Source: Acidobacteriota bacterium (lineage in GTDB: Bacteria > Acidobacteriota > Aminicenantia > Aminicenantales > Aminicenantaceae). From it: a DNA stretch of 61,858 nt. The stretch covers positions 1 to 61,858 of the forward strand of contig DAOVDI010000002.1 in the NCBI GenBank assembly GCA_030669585.1, read 5' to 3'. This document shows, one piece after another, positions 15,367 to 37,526 of this stretch (the first letter of the stretch is position 1; every line of letters starts with the position of its first letter). The notes beneath the pieces were generated by a model. The model searched no databases, had not been told where the DNA came from, and saw nothing but the letters and a program-made list of their open reading frames with translations. Both the position numbers and the translations under genes were made by a program.

Positions 15367-15382
15367 TGCAATTATTGTGCCA
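15367..15382 (-). promoter_or_regulatory. Sigma-54 (-24/-12) promoter, consensus match
   Basis: The minus strand reads TGGCAC-aataa-TTGCA. This matches TGGCAC-N5-TTGCW exactly, about 30 nt upstream of the ATG at 15337. Confidence 0.65.
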
Positions 15383-18184: not shown

Positions 18185-18194
18185 AGTATCTCCC

Positions 18195-23794: not shown

Positions 23795-25255
23795 TTATCG
23801 TTTGAGTTGTTTAACCAATTCACCGGCTCTATCGTAGATGTTGATCTCGAGCGGCATATCTCCGGGCAGACAATGGGTTCCGCAGGCATGGCAGGGGTCG
23901 TACGGCCTGAAACCCATCTCGACCATATTCAGCAGTCCGTCGTCTACCTTACCTCCTTTGATGAAGGATTTTGCCGCTTTTTCAATGGACATATTGATGG
24001 CGGCAGCATTGTTAAGAGTGGCAACGATAAGATTCGCCTCGGTGATAATGCCTTTTTCATCTGTCTTGTAGTGATGAAAGAGCGTGCCGCGGGGGGCTTC
24101 GACAACACCGAATCCCTCATCCGGAGTTTTAGTCGGAATGTTGCGGATATGTGTGTTTGTGATATCCTTGTCCTCCAGCAGCTGAACCATTGTTTCCGCA
24201 GCTTGAAGCGCTTCGATCAGCCGGGCCCAATGAAAAGCCAGTGTGTGGTGAGAGGGCCTTCCTCCAAGGACCTCGAACATCTTTTCATAATGCTCCTGGG
24301 CCAGCGGCGACTGCATCCCATCCGCTGCGTTGAGGCGTGCAAGTGGTGCGACTCTGAACACACCTGAGTCTTTTCCTTCCTCAAAGCCTTTCCATCCGAC
24401 ATTTTTTAAGAATGGGAACTTGATATAAGTCCAGGGCTCTACATGCTCGGAGATGTGGTCCAAATATTCCCGGGCCTTAAATTTGGCGAATTCCTTTCCG
24501 TCCGGGTCGACCACACGGATGTCGCCGTCATAAAATTCGACTTTGTTGTCCGGTGTGACCATTCCCATGTAATAGGTTTTAATTTGATAGGCGTCGCCGA
24601 CAACAATGTCAACGTATTCCTTATTTTGAAGTACCACATCGTTGAAGATTTTCAAGGCGAATTGAGCAAATTCCACTGTTTCCTTGGCCCATCCTAAAAA
24701 TTCGACTCTGTGTTCTTCATCCAGCCCTTTGGAAACGCCGCCTGGAAGACCGCAAACCGGATGTATGATCTTTCCACCCAGATAGTTGATGATCTCACGG
24801 GTCAGCCTTCGGATTTTTATGACCTGTCCTCCGATCTCCAGGCCGACTTTGCCGATGACACCCAGAATGTTGCGTTCGGCCTTTGGAACGTTCGGGCCCA
24901 CAACAAAATCAGGCCCTCCCAGGAAGAAAAAGTGTAGAGTGTGATCCTCGAACTGGAAAGAATTGTAAATAAGTTCTCTGATTTTTTTTGCAGTCGGAGG
25001 TGGTTTGACATGCCAGAGGTCGTCTACGGCTTTTGTTGAAGCCATGTGGTGGGCGGTCGGACAAACGCCGCAGATGCGCGGAGTGATCCGCGGCATCTCT
25101 TCAGCAGGTCTTCCTACGGCGAACTGCTCGAACCCGCGCAATTCTGGTATCTGAAGGATAGCACGGTCCACATCTCCATTGTCATCAAGAAAGATCTCTA
25201 TCTTGCCGTGTCCCTCCAGGCGCGTAATCGGATCAATGGTAATTCTTTTGCTCAT
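23795..25255 (-). CDS. mvhA: [NiFe] hydrogenase large subunit, Mvh-type (group-3c-like)
   Basis: 486 aa. Motifs RLEGHGKIEI, RICGVCPTAH and C-terminal DPCHACGTH, followed by a 25-aa cleavable extension. Adjacent mvhG and mvhD. Confidence 0.85.
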   Translation of the reverse strand: MSKRITIDPITRLEGHGKIEIFLDDNGDVDRAILQIPELRGFEQFAVGRPAEEMPRITPRICGVCPTAHHMASTKAVDDLWHVKPPPTAKKIRELIYNSFQFEDHTLHFFFLGGPDFVVGPNVPKAERNILGVIGKVGLEIGGQVIKIRRLTREIINYLGGKIIHPVCGLPGGVSKGLDEEHRVEFLGWAKETVEFAQFALKIFNDVVLQNKEYVDIVVGDAYQIKTYYMGMVTPDNKVEFYDGDIRVVDPDGKEFAKFKAREYLDHISEHVEPWTYIKFPFLKNVGWKGFEEGKDSGVFRVAPLARLNAADGMQSPLAQEHYEKMFEVLGGRPSHHTLAFHWARLIEALQAAETMVQLLEDKDITNTHIRNIPTKTPDEGFGVVEAPRGTLFHHYKTDEKGIITEANLIVATLNNAAAINMSIEKAAKSFIKGGKVDDGLLNMVEMGFRPYDPCHACGTHCLPGDMPLEINIYDRAGELVKQLKR

Positions 25256-26235
25256 TTGACAGTCTCCATTCTTTTTCTTCTTAATATTGATGATGGAAGG
25301 CTGAATCGATAGAATGTTCCCGCTGGATCGACGATCGTGTTAACGATCTTTTCAATTTCTTCCTCATCATCTGAGTCCAGAAGTGATGCAAAGGCGCCTA
25401 GGAATTTTGCTCCCTGGTCGTAGACCTGGTCGGTAGGGCCGAAACAGCCTCTGCAGGGCATATTTCCGAGAATACAGCGTTCTTCGCATCCTGACCGGGT
25501 AGCAGGCCCCATACAGATAATCCCCTGGGCCAGGAAACATTTTTCATTGTCCATCTCGACTTCCCAGGGTCTTTTGACCGCTTTTATCGCCAGCTTTTCC
25601 GGTTTGGAATCATTGCGGCCACAGTCGTCGCAGAGAGATTTGTTTGGAGAAAGGACTGCTCCTTTGGAGGGGAGTTTCCCTTCCAGGATCGCTGTTATGG
25701 CGGTCATGATCAGATGTTTTGGGGGGGCGCAGCCCGGTAGATAATAATCCACATCGATCACCTGATCAAGTGTATAAACTGTGTCATAAAACCGGGGAAG
25801 AGTAAGTTCCTTGCCGTCTTCCATAATATGCTTTTCCTGGGGAATTGTTCCTTCAGGGTTGTCTGTGGATGGGGATGTGTGATATGAACTGTTAAAGATG
25901 GTCTTCCTGTTCCAAAAGTTAGCAAGTCCGGGGATACCGCCCAGATGGGAGCAGCTTCCAAAAGCAACGACAAGACCGGATTTCCGGCGCAGGAGGTTTA
26001 CCATTTCTTCCTGTTCTGAATTCCTGACAGCACCATTGATAAAACTTACAGCAATGGATCCGTCTTCCATTGCTTCTACATCCGTTTTTTTAAAATCCAT
26101 GGCAACCGGCCAGAATACGATATCAACAGCAGCTGTGACTTTTAATATGTCCTCTGCCAGGTCTATTACAGCTTCTTCACATCCGCCGCAGGATGCACAC
26201 CAGTAAAATGCGACTTTAGGCTTCTCTGTACTCAT
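25252..26235 (-). CDS. mvhG: [NiFe] hydrogenase small subunit, Mvh-type
   Basis: 327 aa. Motifs WCASCGGCEE, FGSCSHLGG, YLPGCAP and distal Cys motifs. No Tat signal, so it is cytoplasmic. Confidence 0.8.
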   Translation of the reverse strand: MSTEKPKVAFYWCASCGGCEEAVIDLAEDILKVTAAVDIVFWPVAMDFKKTDVEAMEDGSIAVSFINGAVRNSEQEEMVNLLRRKSGLVVAFGSCSHLGGIPGLANFWNRKTIFNSSYHTSPSTDNPEGTIPQEKHIMEDGKELTLPRFYDTVYTLDQVIDVDYYLPGCAPPKHLIMTAITAILEGKLPSKGAVLSPNKSLCDDCGRNDSKPEKLAIKAVKRPWEVEMDNEKCFLAQGIICMGPATRSGCEERCILGNMPCRGCFGPTDQVYDQGAKFLGAFASLLDSDDEEEIEKIVNTIVDPAGTFYRFSLPSSILRRKRMETVK

Positions 26236-26659
26236 TGATGTCTCCTTTCATAATATTTAATGGTCCTAATTCTTTGATCTGTTCTGTGAATTCGTCGCAT
26301 ACATTCTGGAATTTAGCGCCTTCAGCAGCTGAAACCCATTCCAGTCTGAGCCGTTCTTTTTCTATACCGAACTGTTCAAGCATTTTTCTTAAAAGGCGAT
26401 GTCGTCTCAAAGCTTTATAGTTTCCTTCTTTGTAGTGGCAGTCTCCTGGATGACACCCTGAAATGAGGATGCCGTCCGCCCCCTCTTTAAATGCTTTTAT
26501 CACAAACTGAGGGTCAACACGTCCGCTGCACATAACTCGAATAATTCGTATATTCGGAGAATATGTCATTCTGGCAGTTCCGGCAAGGTCTGCACCTGTA
26601 TAGGAACACCAGGTGCATAGGAAACCAATTAGTGTGGGATCGAAATTCTCGCTACTCAT
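26216..26659 (-). CDS. mvhD: MvhD/FlpD-type hydrogenase iron-sulfur (2Fe-2S) subunit
   Basis: 147 aa. Motifs FLCTWCSYTGADLAG, VMCSGRVDP and GCHPGDCHY. GGAGG RBS upstream. Confidence 0.85.
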   Translation of the reverse strand: MSSENFDPTLIGFLCTWCSYTGADLAGTARMTYSPNIRIIRVMCSGRVDPQFVIKAFKEGADGILISGCHPGDCHYKEGNYKALRRHRLLRKMLEQFGIEKERLRLEWVSAAEGAKFQNVCDEFTEQIKELGPLNIMKGDINEYREA

Positions 26660-26680: not shown

Positions 26681-28438
26681 TTATTCAATAAATATTCCTT
26701 CAATTTCGGCAAAAATCTGTTTATCACGGAAATGCTTCTGCTGGGCCGCTCCACTTGGACAGGCTGAAACGCAGGTACCGCAGCCCTTGCACAAAGCATC
26801 GTTGATTTCAGAGATTCCTTTTTCTTTATCATAAGTGATCGCTGTAAAAGGACAAAGTCCCACGCAGATCTGGCAGCCGGCGCAGAGCTCTTCATCGATC
26901 TCGGCTGTGATTGGTTCGAGATCAAACTTTCCCTTATCAGCCAGAGCAAGGGCCTCGCATGCCGCAGCACCAGCCTGTGCGACAGTATCGGGAATGTCTT
27001 TGGGTGACTGGCATGTTCCTGCCAGAAAGATCCCGTCAGAGAAAGTGGATACCGGAGCTAGTTTGGGGTGTCTCTCCAGGAAAAAGCCATCCTGGCTGCA
27101 GGAGATGTTGAAGACTTTGGCGATCTGGTTGGAATCTGTTCCGGGTTCCAGCCCGGTTGCCAGGATGACCATGTCCACCGGGATGCGCCTGACAACTCCG
27201 ATCAATGTGTCTTCTACGCGGATAATAAGCTTTCCTTCTTCTTCTTTGCTGAGAGCCATGTCACTTACTTCGGAGACACGTCCCCGGATGAATTTTGTCC
27301 CTTCATGAAGCAGCCGGTGATAAAATTCCTCATATCCTTTGCCGAAACACCTCATATCGATATAAAAATCGTAGATGTCTGCAGATGTCTTTTCTTTGAG
27401 TAAATGTGCAAATTTCAGAGAATACATACAGCAGACGCGTGAACAGTACTCATTGTAATTTTCGTCTCTAGACCCAACACAGTGGATGATGCCCACGGAC
27501 TTGGGTTCCTCGCCGTTGGATAAGAGAATCTTTCCTCCTGTCGGACTTGATGCATTAACAAGTCTTTCGAATTCCAGAGCAGTGATGACATTATCTAAAC
27601 GGCCATATCCATACGCTGGGATCAAGGAAGGGTCAAAGGATTTGAACCCGGATGCCAGAATTATCGAACCCACTTCGAGCTCGATTTCTTCATCCTGAGC
27701 TTCATGGTCGATAGCTTCTTTTTGACAAACATCTGAGCAGATCTTACATTCCCCCGTCTTAAAGTGGATACAGGCTTCTTCATCGATAAAAGGCACCATG
27801 GGGACAGCCTGCCGGATGGGAACGCGAATAGCGGTTGAAGGACCGAGATCCAGTTCGCTGTGAATTACTTTTCGGCCGTGAAGGTCTTCGACCGTAATGG
27901 CTCCGGTAGGACAGAAAAATGCACAGGCCGTACAGCCGATACATGCTTCGGACTGCTCACCGAATGGGGTGCAGACTTCCCGGTGCTGGCCTCTCTGGAG
28001 AAAACTGATGGCACTGGCACCCACAATATCTTCACAGGCCCTTACGCACATTCCGCAGAGGATACATTTTTCATCCGGATCTTTGATCTTGAAACGGGTT
28101 TTTTCTATACCCAATTCCTTCGCCAGTTCCTGGACAGGTACTGCGGCAGGTGCTTGAGCAAGGAGCATTTCGACATTCATTCTGCGTGCAAAAAGAGCTT
28201 TATCCGAAGCGGTCTGGATTTCCATCCCGTTCTTGACCAGTGTGTTACAGCTTGTGACGAGTTCAGAACCTTTGCCTGAAATGGATTCCACAACACAGAC
28301 CCGGCAGGCTGCATAGGGCTCCATTAGGGGGTGATAGCAAAGGGTTGGAATTTTGATCTCTTGCTGTTCAGCCGCTTGAAGAATTGTTATTCCATCCTCG
28401 ACCTGGATTGTTTTTCCGTCTATCTTTAAATTCACCAC
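26681..28438 (-). CDS. Fusion protein: HoxU/NuoG-N-terminal-like 2Fe-2S/4Fe-4S module joined to the C-terminal two-thirds of HdrA
   Basis: 585 aa with a GTG start after AAGGAG. Residues 1 to about 200 carry IDGKTIQV…CYHP…CRVCVVE…C (2Fe-2S) and CILCGMCVRAC. From about residue 165 there is HdrA-like sequence: CIGCTACAFFCPTGAI…RQAVP…CKICSDVC…VGSIILASGFKSFDP…CVGSRD…YCSRVCCMYSLK…FLAGTCQSPKDIPDTVAQ. Then a C-terminal 2x[4Fe-4S] (CAGCQICVGLCP, CKGCGTCVSACP). Confidence 0.75.
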   Translation of the reverse strand: MVNLKIDGKTIQVEDGITILQAAEQQEIKIPTLCYHPLMEPYAACRVCVVESISGKGSELVTSCNTLVKNGMEIQTASDKALFARRMNVEMLLAQAPAAVPVQELAKELGIEKTRFKIKDPDEKCILCGMCVRACEDIVGASAISFLQRGQHREVCTPFGEQSEACIGCTACAFFCPTGAITVEDLHGRKVIHSELDLGPSTAIRVPIRQAVPMVPFIDEEACIHFKTGECKICSDVCQKEAIDHEAQDEEIELEVGSIILASGFKSFDPSLIPAYGYGRLDNVITALEFERLVNASSPTGGKILLSNGEEPKSVGIIHCVGSRDENYNEYCSRVCCMYSLKFAHLLKEKTSADIYDFYIDMRCFGKGYEEFYHRLLHEGTKFIRGRVSEVSDMALSKEEEGKLIIRVEDTLIGVVRRIPVDMVILATGLEPGTDSNQIAKVFNISCSQDGFFLERHPKLAPVSTFSDGIFLAGTCQSPKDIPDTVAQAGAAACEALALADKGKFDLEPITAEIDEELCAGCQICVGLCPFTAITYDKEKGISEINDALCKGCGTCVSACPSGAAQQKHFRDKQIFAEIEGIFIE

Positions 28439-28449
28439 GTTTTATCTCC

Positions 28450-30282
28450 TTAATCGACCTTTACTGCACCGAATTTACATACGTCATAACACACGCCGCA
28501 TTTTGTACATTTATCCTGAATGATTTGGTGGGGTTGATTCCTTTCGCCTAAAATTGCGTCTGAGGCGCAGTTGCGCCGGCAGAGGTCACATCCATGGCCA
28601 GTGTTAACGCATATATCTTCATCAATGGTATAGACGTTCAGGTCCCTGCAGGTGTGAGCCGGGCATTTTTTATCCCTGATATGGGCTTCGTATTCGCTGC
28701 GGAAATATTTCATGGTTGTCAGGACAGGATTTGGTGCGGTTTTTCCAAGGCCGCACAGAGCGGAATCCTTGATGGAGACAGCCAATTCCTCCAACAGCGT
28801 AAGGTCTTCATCTGTTCCCTCTCCCTTGGTGATTCGTGTCAGAATATCAAGCATAGCCTTGGTCCCTTCCCTGCAGGGAGTACATTTCCCGCATGACTCG
28901 TCCTGGGTAAAAGAGAGAAAATATCGGGCTACATCCACCATGCAGGTGTCTTCGTCCATTACTACCATCCCGCCTGAGCCCATCATTGATCCGGCGTCGG
29001 ACAGGCTTTCATAATCAATAGGAAGATCGATCTTCTCTTTCGGAATACAGCCTCCTGACGGGCCTCCCGTCTGAACGGCCTTGAATTCTCTGCCTCCGGG
29101 AATACCGCCTCCAATGTCATAGATGATCTCTCTAAGAGTGATCCCCATGGGTACTTCGACCAGGCCGGTGTTATTGATCTTTCCCACCAGGGAGAAGACC
29201 TTTGTACCCTTGCTGGTTTCGGTTCCGATATGGGAATACCATTTGGCTCCCCGGTTGATAATGGGCGCGATATTGGCCCAGGTCTCTACATTGTTGATAA
29301 GTGTCGGGCATCCCCAAAGGCCTTTCTCGGCAGGATAGGGGGGACGCGGTTTGGGCTCTCCCAGCCGCCCCTCGATCGACGACAGCAGGGCGGTCTCTTC
29401 TCCGCATATAAATGCGCCGGCCCCGCGTACGATTTTGATATCAAAGTCCATCCCGCTGCCCAGTATGTTTTTTCCCAGAAGGCCGTACTCCCTGGCGTCA
29501 TCCAGGGCTTTGTACAGCCTGTTCAGGGCCAGCGGGTATTCATTCCGGACATAGGCATATCCCTGTGTTGCATTGATAGCCTTGGCTCCGATGACCATGC
29601 CTTCGATGACGGAATGGGGATCGGCTTCAAGAATACTCCGGTCCATAAAGGCTCCTGGGTCTCCTTCGTCCCCGTTACAAACAAGATATTTTACATTCCC
29701 GTTGGAGCTGACGGCATTGCTGACGAATTCCCATTTTAATCCTGTTGGAAATCCCCCTCCCCCTCGGCCCCGAAGTCCTGATTTTTGGATTTCAGATCTG
29801 ATATCTGAGGGAGACATACTGGTCAGAGCTTTAGCCATCGCCTTGTAACCGTCCCGGGCAATGTATTCATCGATTTTTTCCGGATCTATCAATCCCCTGT
29901 TTCTCAGGGCGATAAGGACCTGTTTTTTGAAAAAGTCAATATCACTCAGTACAGGGATGGGTGTTTTTTCTTCGGGAGGGATATACATCAATTTTTCAAC
30001 CGGGCGGCCTTTAAGAAAGTGCTCCTCAACAAGATGAGGAATATCTTTCGTCGTTAGGGTCTGATAAAAAATATTTCCCGGCTGGACAACCAAAAGCGGA
30101 CCCCTCTCGCAAAAACCATTGCATCCGGTCGTGACGATAAGAACTTCATTATCCAGGTCCTGTTTTTTTATTTCCGTTTCCAATGCTTCTTTGATCTCAA
30201 ACGAATGATTGGAAACGCAGGCGGTGCCGGCACAAACCATGAGATGGACTCGGTATTCTTTTTCCTTTTTTATTTTTGCCAT
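28450..30282 (-). CDS. NuoF-like NAD(P)H-binding FMN/Fe-S subunit (HydB/HndC/HoxF-like)
   Basis: Start taken at MAKIKKEKEY (30282, AAGGA RBS); the track start is 30315. N-terminal thioredoxin-like 2Fe-2S domain. NAD/FMN motifs GDEGDPGAF and GRGGGGFPTGLKW. N3 cluster CGKCTPCREG. C-terminal 2x[4Fe-4S]. Confidence 0.85.
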   Translation of the reverse strand: MAKIKKEKEYRVHLMVCAGTACVSNHSFEIKEALETEIKKQDLDNEVLIVTTGCNGFCERGPLLVVQPGNIFYQTLTTKDIPHLVEEHFLKGRPVEKLMYIPPEEKTPIPVLSDIDFFKKQVLIALRNRGLIDPEKIDEYIARDGYKAMAKALTSMSPSDIRSEIQKSGLRGRGGGGFPTGLKWEFVSNAVSSNGNVKYLVCNGDEGDPGAFMDRSILEADPHSVIEGMVIGAKAINATQGYAYVRNEYPLALNRLYKALDDAREYGLLGKNILGSGMDFDIKIVRGAGAFICGEETALLSSIEGRLGEPKPRPPYPAEKGLWGCPTLINNVETWANIAPIINRGAKWYSHIGTETSKGTKVFSLVGKINNTGLVEVPMGITLREIIYDIGGGIPGGREFKAVQTGGPSGGCIPKEKIDLPIDYESLSDAGSMMGSGGMVVMDEDTCMVDVARYFLSFTQDESCGKCTPCREGTKAMLDILTRITKGEGTDEDLTLLEELAVSIKDSALCGLGKTAPNPVLTTMKYFRSEYEAHIRDKKCPAHTCRDLNVYTIDEDICVNTGHGCDLCRRNCASDAILGERNQPHQIIQDKCTKCGVCYDVCKFGAVKVD

Positions 30283-30295
30283 TATCCACGTCCTT

Positions 30296-30685
30296 TCAGT
30301 AATCGGTTTTTTCACTGCCTATGCCCAGGGCATATTTTTCAACGATTTTGCCGCCGAGCACATGTTTTTCCAGAATTTCCTTAGTTTTAGCTCCTGTCAA
30401 TTCTACATATTTCACCGGGGCCTGCCCTTTGATTTCAACAGTCAGCATGGGTTCTTTGCTGCACAGCCCGGCACACCCGGAATTTGTCAGGAGGATTTCG
30501 GTTATATCTTGGGCTTCGATTTCTTCCATCAGAGCGGCCATGATGCCGCGTGCTCCTGCTGCTATTCCGCAGGTTCCCATATGGACAGTGATCTTTGCCC
30601 TGAATTCACTGTCGCCGCGGAGCATGGTTGTTTTTTTTGTTTTTTCTCTAATTTCTTCAAGATCTTCAAGTGTGAGTTTTGGCAT
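30296..30685 (-). CDS. Thioredoxin-like [2Fe-2S] ferredoxin (HndB/HydD-like)
   Basis: 129 aa. Motifs VHMGTCGIAAGA and SGCAGLCSKEP. Confidence 0.75.
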   Translation of the reverse strand: MPKLTLEDLEEIREKTKKTTMLRGDSEFRAKITVHMGTCGIAAGARGIMAALMEEIEAQDITEILLTNSGCAGLCSKEPMLTVEIKGQAPVKYVELTGAKTKEILEKHVLGGKIVEKYALGIGSEKTDY

Positions 30686-31160
30686 CTTTTTCCTCCTTCC
30701 TTCTTCCTTCTTTATATTTTTTTAATACGCCTGGAACCTTGGCCTGAGAGATCTTTCCATATACGTCCTCTCCAATCATTACAACAGGAGCAAGGCCGCA
30801 GCATCCGACGCAGTGAACTTCATCCAGGCTGAATTCCTTGTCTTCCGTGGTTTCCCCGGATTTGATGTTAAGTTCTCTTTCAAGTTTTTCGAGGACCAAC
30901 TGAGCGCCGCGTACATGGCAGGCTGTTCCCAGACAGACATGAATAGGATGTTTGCCTTTGGGTTCCAGGCTAAAAGCATTAAAAAATGTTGCCAGGCTCA
31001 ATACGCGACTGAGAGGTATATTCATCTCGCGGGAAACCTGCAGGATGGCTTCCTTCGGCAAATATCCGAGGGCCTCTTGGATATCCTGCAGAATAGAGAT
31101 AATTGAACTCTGGTCAGTTTCATAATTCGCAAGGATTTGGGAGATTTTTTCTGGATTCAT
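30666..31160 (-). CDS. NuoE-like [2Fe-2S] subunit (HydC/HndA/HoxE-like)
   Basis: 164 aa. Motif SIISILQDIQ. Cluster motifs VCLGTACHVRG and CVGCCGLAP. Confidence 0.85.
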   Translation of the reverse strand: MNPEKISQILANYETDQSSIISILQDIQEALGYLPKEAILQVSREMNIPLSRVLSLATFFNAFSLEPKGKHPIHVCLGTACHVRGAQLVLEKLERELNIKSGETTEDKEFSLDEVHCVGCCGLAPVVMIGEDVYGKISQAKVPGVLKKYKEGRRKEEKDAKTHT

Positions 31161-31705
31161 TTTTCCCTCCTAATAAGGTTTAACTTTTTATCTATTTTAG
31201 TTTTTAAGATGTTGATTACCTCTGGGGAGTTGATCGGAATGCCATCAAGTTGTTTTTTTATTTCCTTTGTGTCAAATGTGAATTCGGATCGATCGGATTT
31301 GGCTGAAAAAAAGATGTCAATATCCGGATGGCCTATGATCAAAGTGGCAAGGGTCTGTGATATGTCTCCTAGAGGCTTGGTGTCAATGTGGTCTGCCTTA
31401 AAAGTTGCTTTTATATTTGTTCCCTGACCGGCTTTGGAATTAATGACAAAACTGCCTTCCGCGCTTCTGGCGGCTTCGGCAAGCAATGACAGCCCAAGGC
31501 CGAATTTTCTTGTCTTTTTAGTTGTAAAAAAAGGATTTAATGCAGCATTCATGGTATCTTCCGTCATTCCTTTCCCGTCATCTGTGATTTCCAGGCTGAG
31601 CAGATTGTTTTTGCTGTCCTTCTTGATAGAGATTTCGATATTTCGGGCCTCTGCCCGAATCGAATTCTCAGCGATATCAAGAATGTGCAATGATAGATCC
31701 TCCAT
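31157..31705 (-). CDS. Stand-alone GHKL (histidine-kinase-like) ATPase, no H-box domain
   Basis: 182 aa. N box HILDIAENSIRA. G1 DDGKGM. G2 GLGLSL. It sits between the PHP and NuoE-like genes. Confidence 0.7.
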   Translation of the reverse strand: MEDLSLHILDIAENSIRAEARNIEISIKKDSKNNLLSLEITDDGKGMTEDTMNAALNPFFTTKKTRKFGLGLSLLAEAARSAEGSFVINSKAGQGTNIKATFKADHIDTKPLGDISQTLATLIIGHPDIDIFFSAKSDRSEFTFDTKEIKKQLDGIPINSPEVINILKTKIDKKLNLIRREK

Positions 31706-31710
31706 GTTTA

Positions 31711-32442
31711 TTAATGTAAGATTTTTCGTCCTTTTCTATTCAAAAATGCCATTTTAATTTCTTTGGCGGTTCCTTCTTTCATATAAAATTGTGTGTATCC
31801 TTTGCCGATATCGTCTGGAAAATGAGCATCGGATGATTGGATGATGGGAAGGGGAAAGTCATATTGGGATGCGGCCTTCTCAAATGACATCCTTCGGGAA
31901 ATTTCAAGGGCATCCAATTCAAGATTGTCCGGAAGGAATCCAAGCTGCCCGAGAAGACTGAATGATTCTCTGTCTATGTGAGCTGCAATGGCGATTCCGT
32001 TAAAGTCATGAATGAGATGGATAACTTTATCTATGGTAAAAGTTGAAGCGCCGATCAGGAGTTTTTTATTGAAATGAAGGACTTCATCATTTTTATTGAC
32101 GACGACCTGCATGCCGAATGCTTCCTCGTCGTTTTCGCCCGGGAGATTTTTATAGATCAATTCCTGAAGATGTAGAGCAGAACTCACATTGTCGAAAAGG
32201 GCCAGAATGTGGATTTCTTCGAGAGATGTGACTTCAATCCCTGGTAGTACGCGGATCTCATATTCAGCGGCTGCCTCTATGACAGCAGGAACATTTTCGG
32301 CCGAATTATGATCGCAAATGCCCAGAATATCAATGGACGATTCTCTGGCCTTCATGGCTATCGTTGTCGGCGACATCTTTAAATCCGCACATGGAGAAAG
32401 GCATGTGTGGATATGAAGATCCGCCTTAAATATTTTAAGCAT
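31711..32442 (-). CDS. PHP-domain metal-dependent phosphoesterase
   Basis: 243 aa. Motifs ADLHIHTCLSPC, ICDHNS, AAHIDR and SSDAH, the His/Asp motifs of the PHP fold. Confidence 0.75.
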   Translation of the reverse strand: MLKIFKADLHIHTCLSPCADLKMSPTTIAMKARESSIDILGICDHNSAENVPAVIEAAAEYEIRVLPGIEVTSLEEIHILALFDNVSSALHLQELIYKNLPGENDEEAFGMQVVVNKNDEVLHFNKKLLIGASTFTIDKVIHLIHDFNGIAIAAHIDRESFSLLGQLGFLPDNLELDALEISRRMSFEKAASQYDFPLPIIQSSDAHFPDDIGKGYTQFYMKEGTAKEIKMAFLNRKGRKILH

Positions 32443-32443
32443 T

Positions 32444-32785
32444 TTATTTTTTGGTATCTAAAAGGGCATACAATTTACCTGATATAACAAATGCCGAATC
32501 CTGAGTTGATAGAATGGGGATGTTTTCTTCCTCTGCTTTTTTCAGTGTTTCTTCGTCCGGCTTTCGATTATTCACGAGGATGATTCCAGAAAGTTCTTTG
32601 AGTTTTGCTACTGCTACGATGTTGAGGTGAATTTGAAGCGTGATCCACAATTCTTTTTCTTTGCTGTTAGCAATGACATCACTCAGAAGATCGCTTGAAT
32701 AACCGAAGCTGACCTTGTCTTCCAGGTTTTTATCGGCACTTAAGATTACAAGGTTTAATTTTTCTACGATTTGTTTAAGTGTCAT
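32444..32785 (-). CDS. DRTGG-domain protein
   Basis: Start placed at MTLKQIVEKLNL (32785), about 113 aa. The track ORF extends to 32908 inside the upstream gene. Motifs SDLLSDV and ILVNNRKPDEE…IPILST resemble the paralog at 34576. Confidence 0.6.
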   Translation of the reverse strand: MTLKQIVEKLNLVILSADKNLEDKVSFGYSSDLLSDVIANSKEKELWITLQIHLNIVAVAKLKELSGIILVNNRKPDEETLKKAEEENIPILSTQDSAFVISGKLYALLDTKK

Positions 32786-34139
32786 TTTTTTCTTCCTTTT
32801 TGCCTTTATCATTTGAGTCATCAGTGTCAGTGCGCCTCTCTTTGGCCGATTCGAGCTGCAGCTTGTAATCATCCGCAAGCTTGAAAATACAATCCGTGAT
32901 CTCGGCATCGGCTTTTACCACATCTTCAGCAAATGTCATGCATGTAGGGGAGCCGCAAGCGCCGCAGTCGATTTTGGGGAGGGATTCATATATTTCTTCT
33001 TTTTCCCTCATCTTTTGAATGGCGGCGGCAAGATTGCTGTCCAAAGGTTTAAGAGGCCTTGGTTCTGCCTTTCGTTTCATAGAAAAGTAATTTTGAGCAA
33101 ACAGTTTCCTGATATACCGTATATCCGAACATGCTTTAATTTCTTCGTATTCCAGTCTTTCAACGATCTTGAGGATTTTGTTGTAGCTGATGTATGAGTT
33201 TTCTACTGTCAGGGATCCACCTACGCATCCTTGTGGGCAGGAATAAGCCTCGATAAAGTCAATGTGGTTCAGTTTTCCCTGTTCAATATCATTAAATACT
33301 TTTATAATCTCGCTGATCCCGGAAACAGCCAGGGAATTTTTAAGCCGCAGGGTCCGGCTGATTCCTCCGACCATGGCCCATCCTATTCCAAGAATGCATA
33401 TGTTTTGCAGAGATTTTTTATAGCTTCGGCGTTCGACGCTTTCCATGGCTGAAAGCAGGGGTCCATAGATGTCCGAGATGGAGATGGCTCCATCAAGATA
33501 GGATCTTCCTTTTTCCGCAGGCTGTTTGATTGAGAGCATTTTAACCGGGCATGGAGTGATATAAAAAGTCCCGATATCCTTTTCATCGAGTCCGTATTGA
33601 GCCGATTTTTGTTTTTTAACCTCACGGCCTGCGATCTCTCTGGGGACGTTCAGAGATATGATGTGGTCGATCAAAGATGGGTATTTGACCTGGATCAAGC
33701 GTACAACCGTGGGGCAGGAATTGAAGATGACCGGCTTTGGACCTTTGTGTTCATTGAGATATTCATTTATAGCAAAGCTGACTTGTCCGCAGGTGTTTAT
33801 AAGGTCAAAAGCGTCATCAAATCCCAATTTTTTCAAGCCGTTCAATATCTCATATGGAAGAATATCCCTTCCGAATTGAGCAATAAGCGCAGGAGAAGGA
33901 ATGGCAACTGTGTGCCTGAATTTGGAGAGTTCACCGAAGGGGTCAGTTAAGGGAACGATAGCTCCCTCTGGACAGATCGTAATACATTCGCCGCAGTCGA
34001 TACATCTGTCTTCCAGGATAATGGCTTTTCCATTCCTTACCCGGATCGCTTGTGTCGGGCAGACGTGCATACATTTCATACGTCCGTTGCATTTGTCCTC
34101 TTCTATACGGATAGAGTGATAGTAGTGGCTGTTGTTCAT
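32775..34139 (-). CDS. [FeFe]-hydrogenase-like protein with degenerate H-cluster motifs (putative sensory, HydS/Hfs-like)
   Basis: 454 aa. N-terminal 2x ferredoxin-type Cys motifs. L1-like FNSCPTVV (canonical TSCCPxW). L2-like ITPCPVKM (canonical MPCxxKxxE). L3-like EAYSCPQGCVGGS (canonical ExMxCxxGCxxGGGQP). Extra C-terminal CGACGSPTC motif. Confidence 0.75.
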   Translation of the reverse strand: MNNSHYYHSIRIEEDKCNGRMKCMHVCPTQAIRVRNGKAIILEDRCIDCGECITICPEGAIVPLTDPFGELSKFRHTVAIPSPALIAQFGRDILPYEILNGLKKLGFDDAFDLINTCGQVSFAINEYLNEHKGPKPVIFNSCPTVVRLIQVKYPSLIDHIISLNVPREIAGREVKKQKSAQYGLDEKDIGTFYITPCPVKMLSIKQPAEKGRSYLDGAISISDIYGPLLSAMESVERRSYKKSLQNICILGIGWAMVGGISRTLRLKNSLAVSGISEIIKVFNDIEQGKLNHIDFIEAYSCPQGCVGGSLTVENSYISYNKILKIVERLEYEEIKACSDIRYIRKLFAQNYFSMKRKAEPRPLKPLDSNLAAAIQKMREKEEIYESLPKIDCGACGSPTCMTFAEDVVKADAEITDCIFKLADDYKLQLESAKERRTDTDDSNDKGKKEEKNDT

Positions 34140-34579
34140 TTTTTCCCGTTTAAATAAAATGTGACATCAAGGGTCGTCCCTTTTCCCGGCGAGGAAGAAA
34201 TATCAAGTTTATCTGCATTCCTTTTAATGTTGGGAAGTCCCAATCCTGCGCCGAATCCCATTTCGCGCATTTCATCGGTTGCGGTCGAGTATCCTTCCTG
34301 CATGGCCAGTTCGATATTGTTAATACCCTGGCCTTTATCCTTGAATGTAATATTGATGGCCGATAGGCTCAGACAAAGAATAACTTCCGCATGGTCCGCA
34401 TACATGACGATATTCATTTCCGCTTCGTAGGACGCGATGGCCGCCCTGCGTATGATGGCCGGAGCGATCCCGATCTCTTCAAGAATCTCTTTGATTTTTG
34501 TAGATACGATGCCGGCATGGCTGAAATTTCTTCCCTGGACATTAAATTTTTTTATGAATCCATTTCCCTGGCATATCAT
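34136..34579 (-). CDS. Stand-alone GHKL ATPase, anti-sigma-factor/Ser-kinase-like (SpoIIAB/RsbW-like)
   Basis: 147 aa. Motifs EAEMNIVMYA, DKGQGI and GAGLGLPNI. No HisKA domain. Confidence 0.7.
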   Translation of the reverse strand: MICQGNGFIKKFNVQGRNFSHAGIVSTKIKEILEEIGIAPAIIRRAAIASYEAEMNIVMYADHAEVILCLSLSAINITFKDKGQGINNIELAMQEGYSTATDEMREMGFGAGLGLPNIKRNADKLDISSSPGKGTTLDVTFYLNGKK

Positions 34580-34935
34580 GTTTTTATGGTCCTTTCAACA
34601 CCGGCAAGGCCGTGGTTGTACAACAGGCCGCAGGCTTTGTACATCATAAATTTTGTGGACAGCAGGGGAATGTTTTTTTGCCCGGCCAGTTCGATTCCAT
34701 TGCTATCGGGCTTTTTGCCCCGCACATAGATGACAGCATTGGCGCCAATGATGTCTGCTGTCCGTACTGTTTGTATATTGGACAGCCCTGTAAGCAAAAG
34801 GAGTCCCGGTTGACCGAAAGCGAGTACATCGCTCATTAAATCCGATCCTCCGGCACACTCGATCTCTACATCAAGGTAGTTCTCTCCGCAGATAAGATCA
34901 GCCTCCAGAATTTCTTTTATTTCTTTTAACTTCAT
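34576..34935 (-). CDS. DRTGG-domain protein
   Basis: Start placed at MKLKEIKEIL (34935), immediately after the hdrA-N stop; the track start is 34953. Motifs GGSDLMSDVL, LLLTGLSN and IYVRGKKPD…IPLLST. Confidence 0.65.
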   Translation of the reverse strand: MKLKEIKEILEADLICGENYLDVEIECAGGSDLMSDVLAFGQPGLLLLTGLSNIQTVRTADIIGANAVIYVRGKKPDSNGIELAGQKNIPLLSTKFMMYKACGLLYNHGLAGVERTIKT

Positions 34936-34936
34936 T

Positions 34937-35788
34937 TTAGTGTTCTTTTTCAATCTTTTTAATGATCATATCTCCTTTCCGAATGATCCTTTCCGATGGT
35001 GTGATGGTCGTAGGACAATTATTCCAGCAGTCGCCGCAGCCGTTGCATTTATCGACGTCAACATACCGGGCTTTTTTCTTAATCTTTACTTTAAAATTGC
35101 CGACAAATCCCGATATCTCCTCTACTTCACTCCAGGTCAAAAGCTCAATGTTTGGATGTTTTCCGACTTCAGACATTTTCGGGGTTAATATGCAGGCAGA
35201 GCAGTCTAGGGTCGGAAACGTTTTATCAAGCATAGACATATGGCCGCCTATGGAAGATTCTTTTTCTACCAAGTAGACTTTTTTGCCGGAACTGGCATAG
35301 GTCAATGCAGCATGAATACCTGCGATACCGCCCCCGACGATCAGTACTTCCGGGCGTACCGGGACTTCTTTTTTCATCAAAGGGTCATGCAGGGCGACGC
35401 GTCTGACGGCGGCAGAGATCAGGGCTTTGGCCTTTTTAGTGGCTGCATCCGGATTTTCTGTCACCCAGGAAACGTGCTCCCGAATGTTCGCCATCTGGAA
35501 GAAAAAGGGGTTCACTCCCCCTTCGCTCGTTGCTCCTCTGAATGTTGGTTCATGCATCAAAGGGGAACAGGACGCTACAACGACGCGTGTCAAGTTGTGC
35601 TCTTTAATTTGTTCCTTGATCAATTCCTGTCCCGGGTCAGAGCACATGAATTTATATTCTTTAGCCACAATAACGTTATCAAGTTTAGAGGCGAATTCAG
35701 CGACGTCATAGACATTTACTTTGTTCGAAATGTTAGTGCCGCAGTGGCATATAAATACTCCTATTCTCGGTTGTCCGTTTTGATTCAT
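34937..35788 (-). CDS. Truncated HdrA-like protein: N-terminal Fe-S domain, FAD-binding start of the thioredoxin-reductase fold, and one 4Fe-4S motif
   Basis: 283 aa. Motifs IGVFICHCGTNIS and VVVASCSP. Motif NPFFFQMANIREHVSW. Motif VLIVGGGIAGIHAAL…EKESSIGG. Motifs TLDCSACILTPK and CNGCGDCWNNCP, then a stop. Canonical HdrA is about 650 aa. Confidence 0.75.
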   Translation of the reverse strand: MNQNGQPRIGVFICHCGTNISNKVNVYDVAEFASKLDNVIVAKEYKFMCSDPGQELIKEQIKEHNLTRVVVASCSPLMHEPTFRGATSEGGVNPFFFQMANIREHVSWVTENPDAATKKAKALISAAVRRVALHDPLMKKEVPVRPEVLIVGGGIAGIHAALTYASSGKKVYLVEKESSIGGHMSMLDKTFPTLDCSACILTPKMSEVGKHPNIELLTWSEVEEISGFVGNFKVKIKKKARYVDVDKCNGCGDCWNNCPTTITPSERIIRKGDMIIKKIEKEH

Positions 35789-36669
35789 TTCGCCCCTCCA
35801 TTATTGATTTTTTGCCACATGTTTTTTAATGAGATGATCGATCGTTTAAAACCGAGGTCCTCTTTAGGAATTCCAAGGGCCAATCCCATGAGCTGTGTAA
35901 AATAGAGAACAGGGATTTTATAATCTTCTTTGTATTCTTTAGAAACCTTGGCTGCCATGATCTCGAGGTTGAACTGGCAGAGTGGGCACAGGGTCACAAT
36001 GACGTCTGCGCCCTTTTTTTTAGCCTCTTTGAGAAGGACATAATTTAATCCTTTTCCGATGTTTTCAATTGTTCCTGTTAGTGAACCGCCGCAGCACAAG
36101 GTTTTAGCTGAGTAATCCACGGCCTCAGCGCCCATGGCTTCCATGAGATTATCCATTGTTTCCGGGTAATCCGGATCGTCGAAGTCCGTGTAAGGCCTTA
36201 CCAACTGGCAGCCGTAATAGCACGCCACTTTGAGTCCGGTGAGCTTATTTTCGACTTTTTCCTTGATGGTATCCAAGCCTATTTCTTGGATAAATATTTC
36301 CAGGGGATGTCTGACTTTCACAGTGCCTTTGTATTCGCATCCTGTTGTTTTTAGATCGGTTAAAACCTTTTGGGCTTTATTTGATCCTTCTGTTAAAAAG
36401 GTGTTGGATTTTTTCATCGTCAGGAAACATCCGGCGCAGGGAGCCATGACATGACAGCCTGCCTTCTCGGCAATAGACAAGTTGCGACCGCATAAAGCAG
36501 CGGCTATTGTATCATCAACAGCGAAGTATGCTGTAGCTCCGCAGCAGTTCCAGTCATTCATTTCCTCGATTTCCATTCCGATCTTTTTTAGAACAGGCAG
36601 AAGGGATTCTTCGTAGTGTTTTGAACCGCCTTTTAGAGAGCAACCCGGATAATAGATATATTCATTCAT
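35785..36669 (-). CDS. hdrB: Heterodisulfide reductase subunit B (two CCG domains)
   Basis: 294 aa. Motifs YYPGCSL, NCCGATAYF, YYGCQL and LCCGGSL. Confidence 0.85.
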   Translation of the reverse strand: MNEYIYYPGCSLKGGSKHYEESLLPVLKKIGMEIEEMNDWNCCGATAYFAVDDTIAAALCGRNLSIAEKAGCHVMAPCAGCFLTMKKSNTFLTEGSNKAQKVLTDLKTTGCEYKGTVKVRHPLEIFIQEIGLDTIKEKVENKLTGLKVACYYGCQLVRPYTDFDDPDYPETMDNLMEAMGAEAVDYSAKTLCCGGSLTGTIENIGKGLNYVLLKEAKKKGADVIVTLCPLCQFNLEIMAAKVSKEYKEDYKIPVLYFTQLMGLALGIPKEDLGFKRSIISLKNMWQKINNGGAK

Positions 36670-37247
36670 TTTGCGTTCTCCTTAACTTCATTTAACAAAG
36701 TGCGCAGTTGCTTCCGGTTTTTGATCTTTTCTTTTTTTAAGCTCATTCGCCCAGTCTTCATCAGATTGATGCCCAGGGGGGCCATTTTTAACATACCGAG
36801 TGGATTTTTTAACTTAATATACATGTTCACAACAAGCCATAGTTCTGAATTCCGCCCGTTCTTCGCGATGAGCTTGCACATTTCTTGAGCAAGGACAGGA
36901 GGCTGAAGCCTGTTGGGATAAACTTTTTCTTCGATCGCTTTCCGTTTTAATGCATACATAACATCCGTGATCTTGATCTTTGCGGGACAGCGGACCTGAC
37001 ATGTATAACAAGAGGCACACAACCAGATGGTAAAACTCTTAAGAGCTTCTTCCTTGAATCCGTTTTTGATAAAGGAAATGATCTTCCTGGGGGGGTGGTC
37101 CATATAGACTGCCATAGGGCAGGAACTGCTGCATGCGCCGCACTGTATGCACTTGTCGATTTCTTCACATCCTGACATATCCTTAATTTCGTCTAAAAAA
37201 TTCTTGTCCAGCTCTTCTTCAAACTTAACCTTTCTCTGGATATCCAT
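36666..37247 (-). CDS. hdrC: Heterodisulfide reductase subunit C (2x[4Fe-4S])
   Basis: 193 aa. Motifs CIQCGACSSSCP and CASCYTCQVRCP. 4-nt overlap with hdrB. Confidence 0.85.
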   Translation of the reverse strand: MDIQRKVKFEEELDKNFLDEIKDMSGCEEIDKCIQCGACSSSCPMAVYMDHPPRKIISFIKNGFKEEALKSFTIWLCASCYTCQVRCPAKIKITDVMYALKRKAIEEKVYPNRLQPPVLAQEMCKLIAKNGRNSELWLVVNMYIKLKNPLGMLKMAPLGINLMKTGRMSLKKEKIKNRKQLRTLLNEVKENAK

Positions 37248-37497: not shown

Positions 37498-37526
37498 ATA
37501 ATATTTGTGAAATTTTGACTTGTCAA
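37498..37526 (-). promoter_or_regulatory. Candidate sigma-70 promoter for the hdr-mvh block, overlapped by a palindrome
   Basis: The minus strand reads TTGACA-17 nt-TATTAT. TCACA-N7-TGTGA (37494-37510) spans the -10. This would imply a leader of about 240 nt before hdrC. No sigma-54 match was found in 37248-37710. Confidence 0.3.

Follow-up and report, generated by a model that had tools for sequence, protein, structure and literature searches.

Introduction

Can a bifurcating HdrA subunit be made from two separately encoded polypeptides? This question is raised by the window analyzed here, the whole 61,858-nucleotide stretch at the start of contig DAOVDI010000002.1 from an Acidobacteriota bacterium (assembly GCA_030669585.1), in which the gene hdrA-N encodes the N-terminal part of HdrA and then stops. 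Of the four known families of electron-bifurcating enzymes, two are the HdrA type and the HydBC/Bfu type, both of which are central to anaerobic life near the thermodynamic limit. Both types are encoded in the operon around hdrA-N, where a NuoE-NuoF core lies between the two pieces of HdrA. The product is probably a two-chain HdrA whose low-potential arm is wired to the Bfu module in an Mvh-Hdr-Bfu supercomplex. An earlier sequence-only reading of the locus had proposed that HdrA is naturally split here, and the same split in Aminicenantes relatives and in other metagenome-assembled genomes (MAGs) bears this out.

Two genes that together cover HdrA

The two genes in question are the following.

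34937..35788, minus strand: hdrA-N, 283 residues (phmmer against the PDB; cysteine conservation)
26681..28438, minus strand: fusion of a NuoG/BfuA-like domain to the C-terminal part of HdrA (HdrA-C), 585 residues (Pfam; phmmer against the PDB; alignment A1; NCBIfam)

The short gene is a 283-residue open reading frame (ORF) ending in TAA, and it covers the N-terminal 40% of HdrA. Residues 6-264 of HdrA-N match residues 3-261 of 5odc_A, the HdrA of Methanothermococcus thermolithotrophicus (phmmer, E 1.5e-99), and the match to the Methanothermobacter and Methanospirillum proteins is equally good. The translation contains ICHCGTNIS, ASCSP, VLIVGGGIAGIHAAL...EKESSIGG, TLDCSACILTPK and CNGCGDCWNNCP, and the earlier description of a stand-alone N-terminal half carrying these motifs was correct. 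Cys14/16/49/74 are the ligands of the N-terminal Fe-S domain, and a GxGxxG motif opens the dinucleotide-binding part of the thioredoxin-reductase fold that holds flavin adenine dinucleotide (FAD). Aligned with the solved enzyme, HdrA-N retains all the N-terminal [4Fe-4S] ligands and the equivalent of Cys197, its Cys196/199 corresponding to Cys194/Cys197. Cys248/251/254/258 form the first CxxCxxCxxxCP motif of the inserted ferredoxin domain, and a 25-residue tail ends the protein, with the pattern xPxxRxhxhGxxh conserved among stand-alone forms. As previously noted, the gene is coupled on both sides: the sequence ATGA holds both the start of hdrA-N and the stop of hdrB, with the ribosome-binding site (RBS) GGAGGGG upstream, and the TAA is separated by one base from the ATG of the next gene.

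The 585-residue fusion protein supplies the remainder. Its residues 1-192 form a NuoG/HydA/BfuA-like N-terminal Fe-S domain with one [2Fe-2S] site (Cys34/45/48/64) and two [4Fe-4S] sites (Cys125/128/131/135 and 166/169/172/176; numbering of alignment A1, which comprises five fusion proteins). The best PDB match of this part is the 247-residue NuoG-like chain 9mqx_A (E 5e-38), followed by HydA1 (8a6t_A) and subunit A of a NiFe hydrogenase (7t2r_A). Residues 197-583 match residues 275-652 of HdrA 8rvu (phmmer against the PDB, E 3e-121); the C-terminal two thirds of the fusion represent HdrA residues of about 263-650. The sequence-only reading had placed the start of the HdrA part at about residue 165 and had taken CIGCTACAFFCP at 166-177 as HdrA-like. 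Both points need correction: the HdrA part starts near residue 195, and CIGCTACAFFCP belongs to the NuoG-like 2x[4Fe-4S] domain, in which Cys125-135 is its partner. In HdrA-C, Cys223/231/234/238 constitute the second motif of the inserted ferredoxin domain, Cys320/332/336/337 the cluster of the thioredoxin-reductase domain, and Cys519-529 and Cys550-560 the motifs of the C-terminal ferredoxin domain. The rest of the FAD domain also lies on the fusion, including E291 and K342, which correspond to Glu356 and Lys409 of solved HdrA, two residues reported as essential for bifurcation (PMC12054007). All cluster cysteines, E291 and K342 are invariant in alignment A1.

The two pieces are complementary. 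In 8rvu numbering the N-half spans 11-267 and the C-half begins at 275, leaving a gap of about 7 residues and zero overlap, and the break separates the two Cys motifs of the inserted ferredoxin domain. HdrA-N supplies GxGxxG and the first Cys motif, and the fusion supplies the remainder; completion of the FAD site and of the inserted ferredoxin domain would therefore be possible only in trans. A complete FAD domain with its Lys/Glu pair exists only in both chains jointly, and the motifs of the inserted and C-terminal 2x[4Fe-4S] ferredoxin domains are all present but spread over the two proteins. A single polypeptide of about 650 residues is what the locus lacks, having instead two genes 6.5 kb apart. 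With every other sequence feature of HdrA in place, the pair is predicted to act as a bifurcating HdrA subunit. As the earlier reading had stated, the complementary regions occur only in the fusion: no third HdrA-like ORF was found in the 62-kb window (blastp against all ORFs of at least 50 residues), nor was any HdrA-like remainder in other frames near the stop.

Two technical explanations of the stop were rejected. The first was a frameshift or leftover HdrA sequence near the end of hdrA-N, and only two HdrA-like pieces are present among the ORFs of the window. The second was selenocysteine read-through, which is excluded because the stop is TAA and not TGA; the selenocysteine position of some HdrAs is Cys199 here.

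An AlphaFold model of an artificial splice of HdrA-N 1-262 and fusion 190-585 reached a mean predicted local distance difference test (pLDDT) score of 88.3 and a predicted template-modelling (pTM) score of 0.80 with a 22-row alignment, low confidence being confined to the artificial joint. Foldseek gave template-modelling (TM) scores of 0.91 to 8rvu_A, 0.90 to 7bkb_A and 0.85 to 5odc_A; the single-sequence prediction of the spliced halves had a pLDDT of 44. At the level of this model, the spliced halves show nothing of HdrA to be missing. The division of the FAD-site residues between the chains and the TM score of 0.91 to 8rvu_A for the single-chain splice support the earlier suggestion that two polypeptides make up the FAD site.

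A Bfu-type module between the halves

Three genes of the intervening region extend the Fe-S chain that begins with the NuoG-like domain of the fusion.

30666..31160, minus strand: nuoE/hydC/bfuC-like [2Fe-2S] subunit, 164 residues (Pfam 2Fe-2S_thioredx, E 1.6e-50; NCBIfam NuoE/HoxE)
30296..30685, minus strand: small thioredoxin-like [2Fe-2S] ferredoxin, 129 residues, kept in relatives (Pfam 2Fe-2S_thioredx, weak, 23.1 bits against a cut-off of 24.8)
28450..30315, minus strand: nuoF/hydB/bfuB-like flavoprotein (Pfam; full-length match to bifurcating HydB chains)

The NuoF-like protein consists of an N-terminal thioredoxin-like [2Fe-2S] domain, a domain for flavin mononucleotide (FMN) and NADH, an NADH_4Fe-4S domain and a C-terminal 2x[4Fe-4S] domain. 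It matches bifurcating HydB/BfuB chains over its full length (7t2r_B, E 2.5e-252; 7q4v_B, 9mqx_B and 8a6t_B), whereas NuoF chains of complex I cover only residues of about 144-555. The protein thus combines the FMN/NADH domain with the N-terminal [2Fe-2S] and C-terminal 2x[4Fe-4S] domains that are absent from non-bifurcating NuoF, and the NuoE-like BfuC and the NuoG-like Fe-S part of BfuA are encoded alongside it. By the criteria of Schut et al. 2022 (PMC9304861), nuoE-nuoF is predicted to be a bifurcating BfuBC core; a small BfuA, with two [4Fe-4S] clusters besides a [2Fe-2S] cluster, would be represented by the NuoG-like part of the fusion.

The split is best read as the insertion of a nuoE-nuoF-nuoG' module into the inserted ferredoxin domain of HdrA, because the nuoE-nuoF core is constant between the halves and is fused in frame to both of them in some lineages. 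An NADH/ferredoxin bifurcation module (nuoE, nuoF and the N-terminal part of nuoG/hydA) would accordingly have come to lie inside hdrA at this domain.

Conservation and spread of the split

Homologues of HdrA-N were collected from 5.8 billion proteins, with further short forms from 1.84 billion representatives. They fall into at least 120 clusters, the 120 best-scoring of which are 281-291 residues long and 82-91% identical, many of them named Aminicenantes. From hdrC through mvhG, the gene order is repeated on the 3.18-Mb contig of one relative. In five Aminicenantes loci compared with the window, HdrA-N and HdrA-C are the two best-conserved parts of the operon, each at 79-86% identity and varying in step, while HdrB shows 61-68% and the regulators 49-69%. 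These relatives carry the same split and the same operon, and no intact HdrA at this position. In 31 split-type sequences, which span many phyla, none of the ten cysteines of HdrA-N varies, and this holds for the 'orphan' ferredoxin motif too.

Alignment A1 was also scanned against one genome per GTDB species. Full-length fusions were found in MAGs labelled Aminicenantes, Armatimonadetes, Bryobacterales/Terriglobia, Zixibacteria, Calditrichaeota, Ignavibacteria and GN15, as well as in those labelled Myxococcales, Desulfobacterales, Anaerolineae, Verrucomicrobiota, Planctomycetota and Thermoplasmata. The split accordingly appears in MAGs under more than ten phylum labels, a spread that the sequence-only reading had not included, as it had not included the nuoE-nuoF module between the halves and its fusion to both in places.

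Every ORF of the related loci (designated by L numbers) was labelled by script with the window proteins, which revealed the recurrent order hdrC-hdrB-hdrA(N)-nuoE-(fdx)-nuoF-[nuoG'::hdrA(C)]-mvhD-mvhG-mvhA in MAGs labelled Armatimonadetes, Bryobacterales, Zixibacteria, Calditrichaeota, Ignavibacteria, Verrucomicrobiota and others. In GN15, Anaerolineae, Desulfobacterales, Myxococcales, Planctomycetota and Thermoplasmata, the fusion gene stands in other contexts or the contigs are too short for the full order. The search of the 1.84 billion representatives returned short forms (P0121, P0124) and also fusions of the HdrA N-half to NuoE (P0123, P0140). The latter arrangement recurs in six loci (L003, L005, L024, L029, L036 and L060), which places the Bfu module exactly inside hdrA, in frame at both ends. 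Locus L003 reads hdrC-hdrB-[hdrA-N::nuoE]-nuoF-[nuoG'::hdrA-C]-mvhD-mvhG-mvhA-hycI-hyp, and L005 has a related arrangement plus a Flx-like gene set.

The two halves also occur together. Among fusion loci with enough upstream sequence, all but L025 have a short HdrA-N, alone or fused to NuoE. In L008, hdrA-N directly precedes the fusion gene, and the halves are adjacent in L048 too. A Syntrophobacteraceae MAG (L034:2811-5150, plus strand) encodes one 780-residue chain made of the N-half, a NuoG-like 2x[4Fe-4S] part and the C-half; its N-half has the tail motif of the stand-alone type, and its NuoG-like part is without the [2Fe-2S] site. This protein looks like a re-fusion of split genes and serves as Rosetta-stone evidence that the halves work together.

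Intact forms are common as well. The order hdrC-hdrB-hdrA-mvhD-mvhG-mvhA, with an hdrA of about 670 residues and without the module, is present in many other MAGs, including relatives. HdrAs of about 1120-1138 residues (L045, L054, L082, L086 and L089) have a GltD/NfnB-like NAD(P)H domain at the very site of the split; pyridine-nucleotide modules thus dock repeatedly at the inserted ferredoxin domain. In a neighbour-joining tree of 95 HdrA C-parts, 33 of them split forms (30 bootstraps), the Aminicenantes split clade lies beside intact HdrAs, several from Acidobacteriota-labelled MAGs, deep nodes being unresolved. The 33 split forms are not recovered together in this tree, which decides neither for a single origin of the split nor for several.

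A different setting is seen in four Myxococcales/Desulfobacterales loci (L024, L026, L029 and L048). Here, the split-HdrA/Bfu/MvhD unit stands beside a BamE-like double HdrA of 1031-1255 residues with hdrC and hdrB; no hydrogenase was found in these four loci, and the NuoF homologue is extended to about 1040-1057 residues in L024 and L029. The gene content suggests a different partner reaction in these lineages.

Proposed complex and electron path

In known HdrA, the low-potential path runs FAD-HA3-HA5-HA6-Fd (PMC6019823), HA3 belonging to the N-terminal domain, HA5 and HA6 to the inserted ferredoxin domain (PMC9012536). The high-potential electron exits through the cluster of the thioredoxin-reductase domain to HdrC and HdrB (PMC9012536). 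When this scheme is applied to the window, the 283-residue protein is best explained as a functional subunit, the predicted N-terminal part of a two-chain HdrA. HdrA-N and the fusion would rebuild the FAD site, with GxGxxG from the former and the flavin-tuning Lys/Glu pair and the rest from the latter, and would likewise rebuild the inserted ferredoxin domain from Cys motif 1 of HdrA-N and motif 2 of the fusion.

The assembled supercomplex would comprise HdrC-HdrB, HdrA-N with [BfuA::HdrA-C], BfuB-BfuC(-Fdx) and MvhD-MvhG-MvhA, and would hold two electron-bifurcating centres. Electrons from H2 would pass through MvhAG and MvhD to the C-terminal ferredoxin domain of HdrA and on to FAD. From there, the high-potential electron would go to HdrC-HdrB and a disulfide, and the low-potential electron would move through the N-domain cluster, the two-chain ferredoxin domain and the BfuA clusters to the BfuB flavin rather than to free ferredoxin. 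At the flavin/Fe-S centre of Bfu, NAD+ and ferredoxin would be reduced, and the whole chain may run in reverse. The two-chain ferredoxin domain would serve as the electrical and mechanical joint between the low-potential arm of HdrA and the Fe-S chain of Bfu. This role is proposed because BfuA is joined to one half of the ferredoxin domain and, in the NuoE fusions, BfuC to the other; in the window, a linker of about 18 residues leads from the last Cys motif of the BfuA-like domain to the HdrA part, into the second half of the inserted ferredoxin domain. A speculative rationale is that disulfide reduction lifts electrons from dilute H2 to a level at which Bfu can charge NADH and ferredoxin. In a broader and tentative extension, these loci may define a new class of Mvh-Hdr-Bfu hydrogenase supercomplexes, widespread in uncultured anaerobes, in which the HdrA and Bfu bifurcating centres work in series and the split acts as a docking device.

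Several points weigh against the two-chain HdrA wired to Bfu. The well-scoring model is of an artificial single-chain splice, in effect a homology model, and does not address the association of the chains. The linker of about 18 residues does not fix the placement of the BfuA-like domain relative to the HdrA clusters, and the thermodynamic rationale is, as said, speculative. In class II benzoyl-CoA reductase (BCRII), known from cryo-EM and the only solved complex that joins Bfu to an HdrA-like subunit, Bfu donates to the input side by way of the C-terminal ferredoxin domain and an MvhD-like adaptor, not to the low-potential arm (bioRxiv 10.64898/2026.04.10.717634). The Anaerolineae locus L025 has the order nuoF-fusion-mvhD and no HdrA-N within 10 kb. 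Finally, the split forms make up one clade in 0 of the 30 bootstraps, and a single insertion is not shown by the tree.

The rival explanation that survives best accepts that the halves form HdrA but makes Bfu the donor on the input side, where NADH and reduced ferredoxin would be confurcated into the HdrA flavin by way of the C-terminal ferredoxin domain and MvhD, the fusion being only a tether. The product would then be an NADH/ferredoxin- and H2-linked disulfide reductase or an H2-evolving enzyme. BCRII offers a precedent, since its BamI hands the electrons of BamGHI on to the C-terminal ferredoxin domain and to BamF, an MvhD-like protein (bioRxiv 10.64898/2026.04.10.717634). The unit beside BamE-like double HdrAs without hydrogenase (L024, L026 and L029) points in the same direction, as does an interdomain linker long enough for other placements, and published genome studies predict a fermentative life for Aminicenantes, in which NADH and reduced ferredoxin would have to be got rid of as H2. 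However, the BfuA-like domain is attached covalently to the inserted ferredoxin domain, the low-potential exit, and not to the C-terminal domain; MvhD-MvhG-MvhA already takes the canonical input position in the operon, and in other HdrAs the inserted ferredoxin domain houses a GltD/NfnB-type NAD(P)H module. Input-side donation by Bfu is therefore considered rather unlikely.

A separate role for HdrA-N, the alternative named in the earlier reading, as a stand-alone Fe-S/flavin carrier or an HdrBC adaptor that does not complete the FAD site of the fusion, appears quite improbable. The position of hdrA-N next to hdrBC and 6.5 kb from the fusion gene would suit such a role, and so would the resemblance of the HdrA N-terminal domain to MvhD-type adaptors and the L025 fusion gene without a nearby HdrA-N. 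On general grounds, however, half a thioredoxin-reductase fold with a GxGxxG strand-helix cannot hold FAD alone, and a half-ferredoxin motif needs the second motif to bind clusters. The two halves moreover co-occur in all but one of the loci that have enough upstream sequence, adjoin each other in L008 and L048, form one chain in L034, and are equally and highly conserved.

That hdrA-N is a functionless remnant of a disrupted hdrA, whether a pseudogene or an assembly artefact, as a stop after 283 codons in place of the canonical single chain of about 650 residues might suggest, is barely credible given the clean TAA and coupled downstream gene, at least 120 independent clusters of the same length at 82-91% identity, cysteines invariant across phyla and an architecture repeated in dozens of independent assemblies, and the usual marks of a disrupted gene (restriction to one strain, relaxed conservation, an adjacent remainder in another frame) were not observed.

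The operon and its neighbourhood

The two-chain HdrA and its predicted Bfu partner are encoded within 16 genes on one strand, from hdrC through mvhA, with overlaps or gaps of at most about 21 nt. The remaining features, in the order of transcription, are given below.

37498..37526, minus strand: candidate sigma-70-like promoter TTGACA-17-TATTAT, about 250 nt upstream of hdrC (11/12 matches; weak)
36666..37247, minus strand: hdrC-like protein with 2x[4Fe-4S], 193 residues (Pfam Fer4_8/Fer4_17; NCBIfam HdrC models below their cut-offs)
35785..36669, minus strand: hdrB-like protein with two CCG domains, 294 residues (Pfam CCG in 2 stretches, E 8e-27; TIGR03288, 212 bits against a cut-off of 345)
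34576..34935, minus strand: DRTGG-like small regulatory protein, 119 residues from the ATG (Pfam DRTGG, E 0.0036)
34136..34579, minus strand: GHKL/HATPase_c kinase-like protein, 147 residues (Pfam HATPase_c, HATPase_c_2)
32775..34139, minus strand: [FeFe]-hydrogenase-like protein, 2x[4Fe-4S] plus Fe_hyd_lg_C plus FeS (Pfam Fe_hyd_lg_C, E 3.5e-26; FeS, E 2.6e-14)
32444..32785, minus strand: DRTGG domain protein, likely start MTLKQIV... (Pfam DRTGG, 27 bits against a cut-off of 25.2)
31711..32442, minus strand: PHP-family phosphoesterase, 243 residues (Pfam PHP, PHP_C)
31157..31705, minus strand: second HATPase_c kinase-like protein, 182 residues (Pfam HATPase_c, E 1e-14)
26216..26659, minus strand: mvhD, [2Fe-2S] adaptor (Pfam FlpD, E 1.7e-57; NCBIfam VhuD)
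25252..26235, minus strand: mvhG, [NiFe]-hydrogenase small subunit (Pfam Oxidored_q6; NCBIfam VhuG, E 1.2e-62, below cut-off)
23795..25255, minus strand: mvhA, [NiFe]-hydrogenase large subunit (Pfam NiFeSe_Hases; NCBIfam VhuA, E 2.4e-131, below cut-off)

The ribosome-binding site AAAGGAGGA precedes the ATG of hdrC, whose stop overlaps the hdrB start by 4 nt. Counts of sigma-70-like sites in the region do not exceed those in shuffled sequences. A consensus scan prompted by a neighbouring sigma-54 regulator found no sigma-54 promoter upstream of hdrC, and a promoter/terminator scan found no convincing terminator inside the operon, site counts again being no higher than in shuffles. By its domain and family matches, MvhA is assigned to the Mvh/Vhu-like group 3c type.

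Six regulatory genes (DRTGG, GHKL, [FeFe]-like, DRTGG, PHP and GHKL; 31157-34935, minus strand) form a block between hdrA-N and nuoE. Such a block of sensor, kinase and phosphatase genes is seen in Aminicenantes, one Bryobacterales MAG and one Calditrichaeota MAG, and thus in only some lineages. In Aminicenantes it would have been added beside the Bfu module, and it is these genes that widen the gap between the hdrA halves to 6.5 kb in the window. The gene directly downstream of hdrA-N had been called DRTGG; its direct Pfam match is weak (E 0.0036), but it shares 31% identity (E 1e-15) with its paralogue at 32444-32785, in which the DRTGG domain is clear. It is conserved in Aminicenantes, Bryobacterales and Calditrichaeota loci.

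The [FeFe]-hydrogenase-like protein falls far below the cut-offs of all NCBIfam [FeFe] hydrogenase models. Catalytic [FeFe] hydrogenases have TSCCP at the position where the window protein reads NSCPT, and this difference would fit a sensory rather than a catalytic function; a HydS-like sensory role is the putative assignment. A frameshift between this gene and the second DRTGG gene, which overlap by 134 nt, was considered and rejected in favour of an over-long ORF call as the most likely cause. In L011, L012 and L023, the homologues show no alignment before about residue 36-41 of the over-long ORF; they begin at the methionine of MTLKQIV.

Further genes and sites lie downstream of the operon or elsewhere in the window. 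A second cytoplasmic [NiFe]-hydrogenase cluster follows mvhA directly (15663-20113 and 20368-23701, both on the minus strand) and encodes large, small, FAD/NAD-binding and Fer4_22 subunits, a layout that looks like the sulfhydrogenase (group 3b) type. Ahead of it are genes for a histidine kinase with a Cache domain and for a sigma-54-dependent response regulator. Just downstream of this cluster, at 15367-15382 on the minus strand, is the sole perfect sigma-54 consensus of the window (TGGCAC-N5-TTGCA); matches with at most one mismatch number 3 against 1.7 expected and may be due to chance. Also encoded upstream in the window (8864-11758, minus strand) is a large glutamate dehydrogenase of 964 residues, which is NAD-specific and of the GDH2 type.

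TGA codons within genes of related loci

In seven related loci (L041, L042, L043, L052, L053, L063 and L077), the mvhA gene has a TGA in frame where the Ni-binding RxCGxC motif near the N-terminus of MvhA has its second Cys ('RICGV*PAAHH'). This TGA probably encodes selenocysteine. The classical selenocysteine position of [NiFeSe] hydrogenases is a different one, in the C-terminal DPCxxC motif. Window MvhA has Cys65 at the TGA position of its relatives.

Two other TGA sites are found in loci of the Chloroflexota type. The HdrA Cys197 equivalent is affected ('DCSA*ILTPK') in L030, L031, L037, L070, L072, L077 and L088, and MvhD ('CG*HPGEC') in L037, L063, L067 and L077; the window has Cys at both sites. 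L030 and L031, which have the TGA in hdrA, carry split-type HdrA-N genes.

Significance of the split form

The split HdrA/Bfu operon, for which the support comes from comparative genomics, is of considerable interest to bioenergetics. If the proposal is true, it provides a second and far more widespread combination of two bifurcating modules, wired differently from benzoyl-CoA reductase, and shows that a flavin site and a ferredoxin domain can each be put together from two polypeptides in nature. The chaining of bifurcating modules could then be studied in a tractable system. The reading of 'group 3c hydrogenase / HdrABC' genes in metagenomes would change for MAGs labelled Aminicenantes, Ignavibacteria and others. 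In at least one metagenome study, an Ignavibacteria MAG is annotated with plain MvhADG/HdrABC (PMC7509429); the split form is seen under the same label here, and that MAG may be such a case. For annotation, half-length HdrA genes of the split type should not be called fragments or pseudogenes.

Comparison with known systems

The closest known system is the MvhADG-HdrABC complex of methanogens (5ODC, 8RVU and 7BKB), all subunits of which are present in the window operon. The order hdrC-hdrB-hdrA...mvhD-mvhG-mvhA is also that of bacterial MvhADG-HdrABC relatives: mvhD, mvhG and mvhA adjoin hdrA, HdrB has two CCG domains, and HdrC has two [4Fe-4S] clusters. The two HdrA pieces are jointly 51% identical to solved HdrA chains and keep the ligand cysteines of all six clusters, Cys197 and the flavin Lys/Glu pair. 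Unlike in MvhADG-HdrABC, HdrA consists of two polypeptides, its C-half carries a NuoG-like domain, and a HydBC/Bfu core lies between the halves. HdrB and HdrC fall below the curated methanogen (equivalog) cut-offs, and the heterodisulfide CoM-S-S-CoB of coenzymes M and B would not be expected as substrate in a bacterial host.

The BfuABC/HydABC enzymes (PMC9304861; NiFe-HydABCSL 7T2R, Nfn-Bfu) share a full-length BfuB-like and a BfuC-like subunit with the window. 'Type 1' Bfu enzymes carry a catalytic flavoprotein domain on their BfuA, and the window fusion follows the same principle. The partner differs, being not a substrate-binding module but two thirds of another bifurcating flavoprotein that needs a further chain.

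Bam-Bfu is the sole combination of Bfu with an HdrA module in the classification of Schut et al. 2022 (PMC9304861). This class II benzoyl-CoA reductase, Bam(BC)2DEFGHI, likewise unites a HydBC/Bfu-type part (BamGHI) and an HdrA-type part (BamE) in one complex, with an MvhD-like adaptor and an HdrBC-like subunit, and according to its description no earlier report had placed two bifurcating modules in one complex (bioRxiv 10.64898/2026.04.10.717634). BamE is one chain, and the separate BamI docks at the C-terminal ferredoxin domain, on the input side; in the window, by contrast, the BfuA-like domain is covalently placed at the inserted ferredoxin domain, on the output side, and the hydrogenase is on the input side. 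No tungsten AOR-type gene, as expected of a Bam-type system, was found in the 16-gene operon. In the searchable full-text literature, neither a split HdrA nor a Bfu linked to Mvh/Hdr was found to be described, though an earlier mention may exist.

The site of insertion itself has a parallel in the 'Type III' HdrA of anaerobic methanotrophic archaea (ANME-1), in which a GltD/NfnB-like domain interrupts the inserted ferredoxin domain at the same site as here (PMC9012536, PMC12054007). Both forms follow the same logic, with a pyridine-nucleotide module in the low-potential arm. 'Type III' HdrA, however, is a single chain with one inserted domain, whereas the window has a three-gene bifurcating insert and a host protein split in two.

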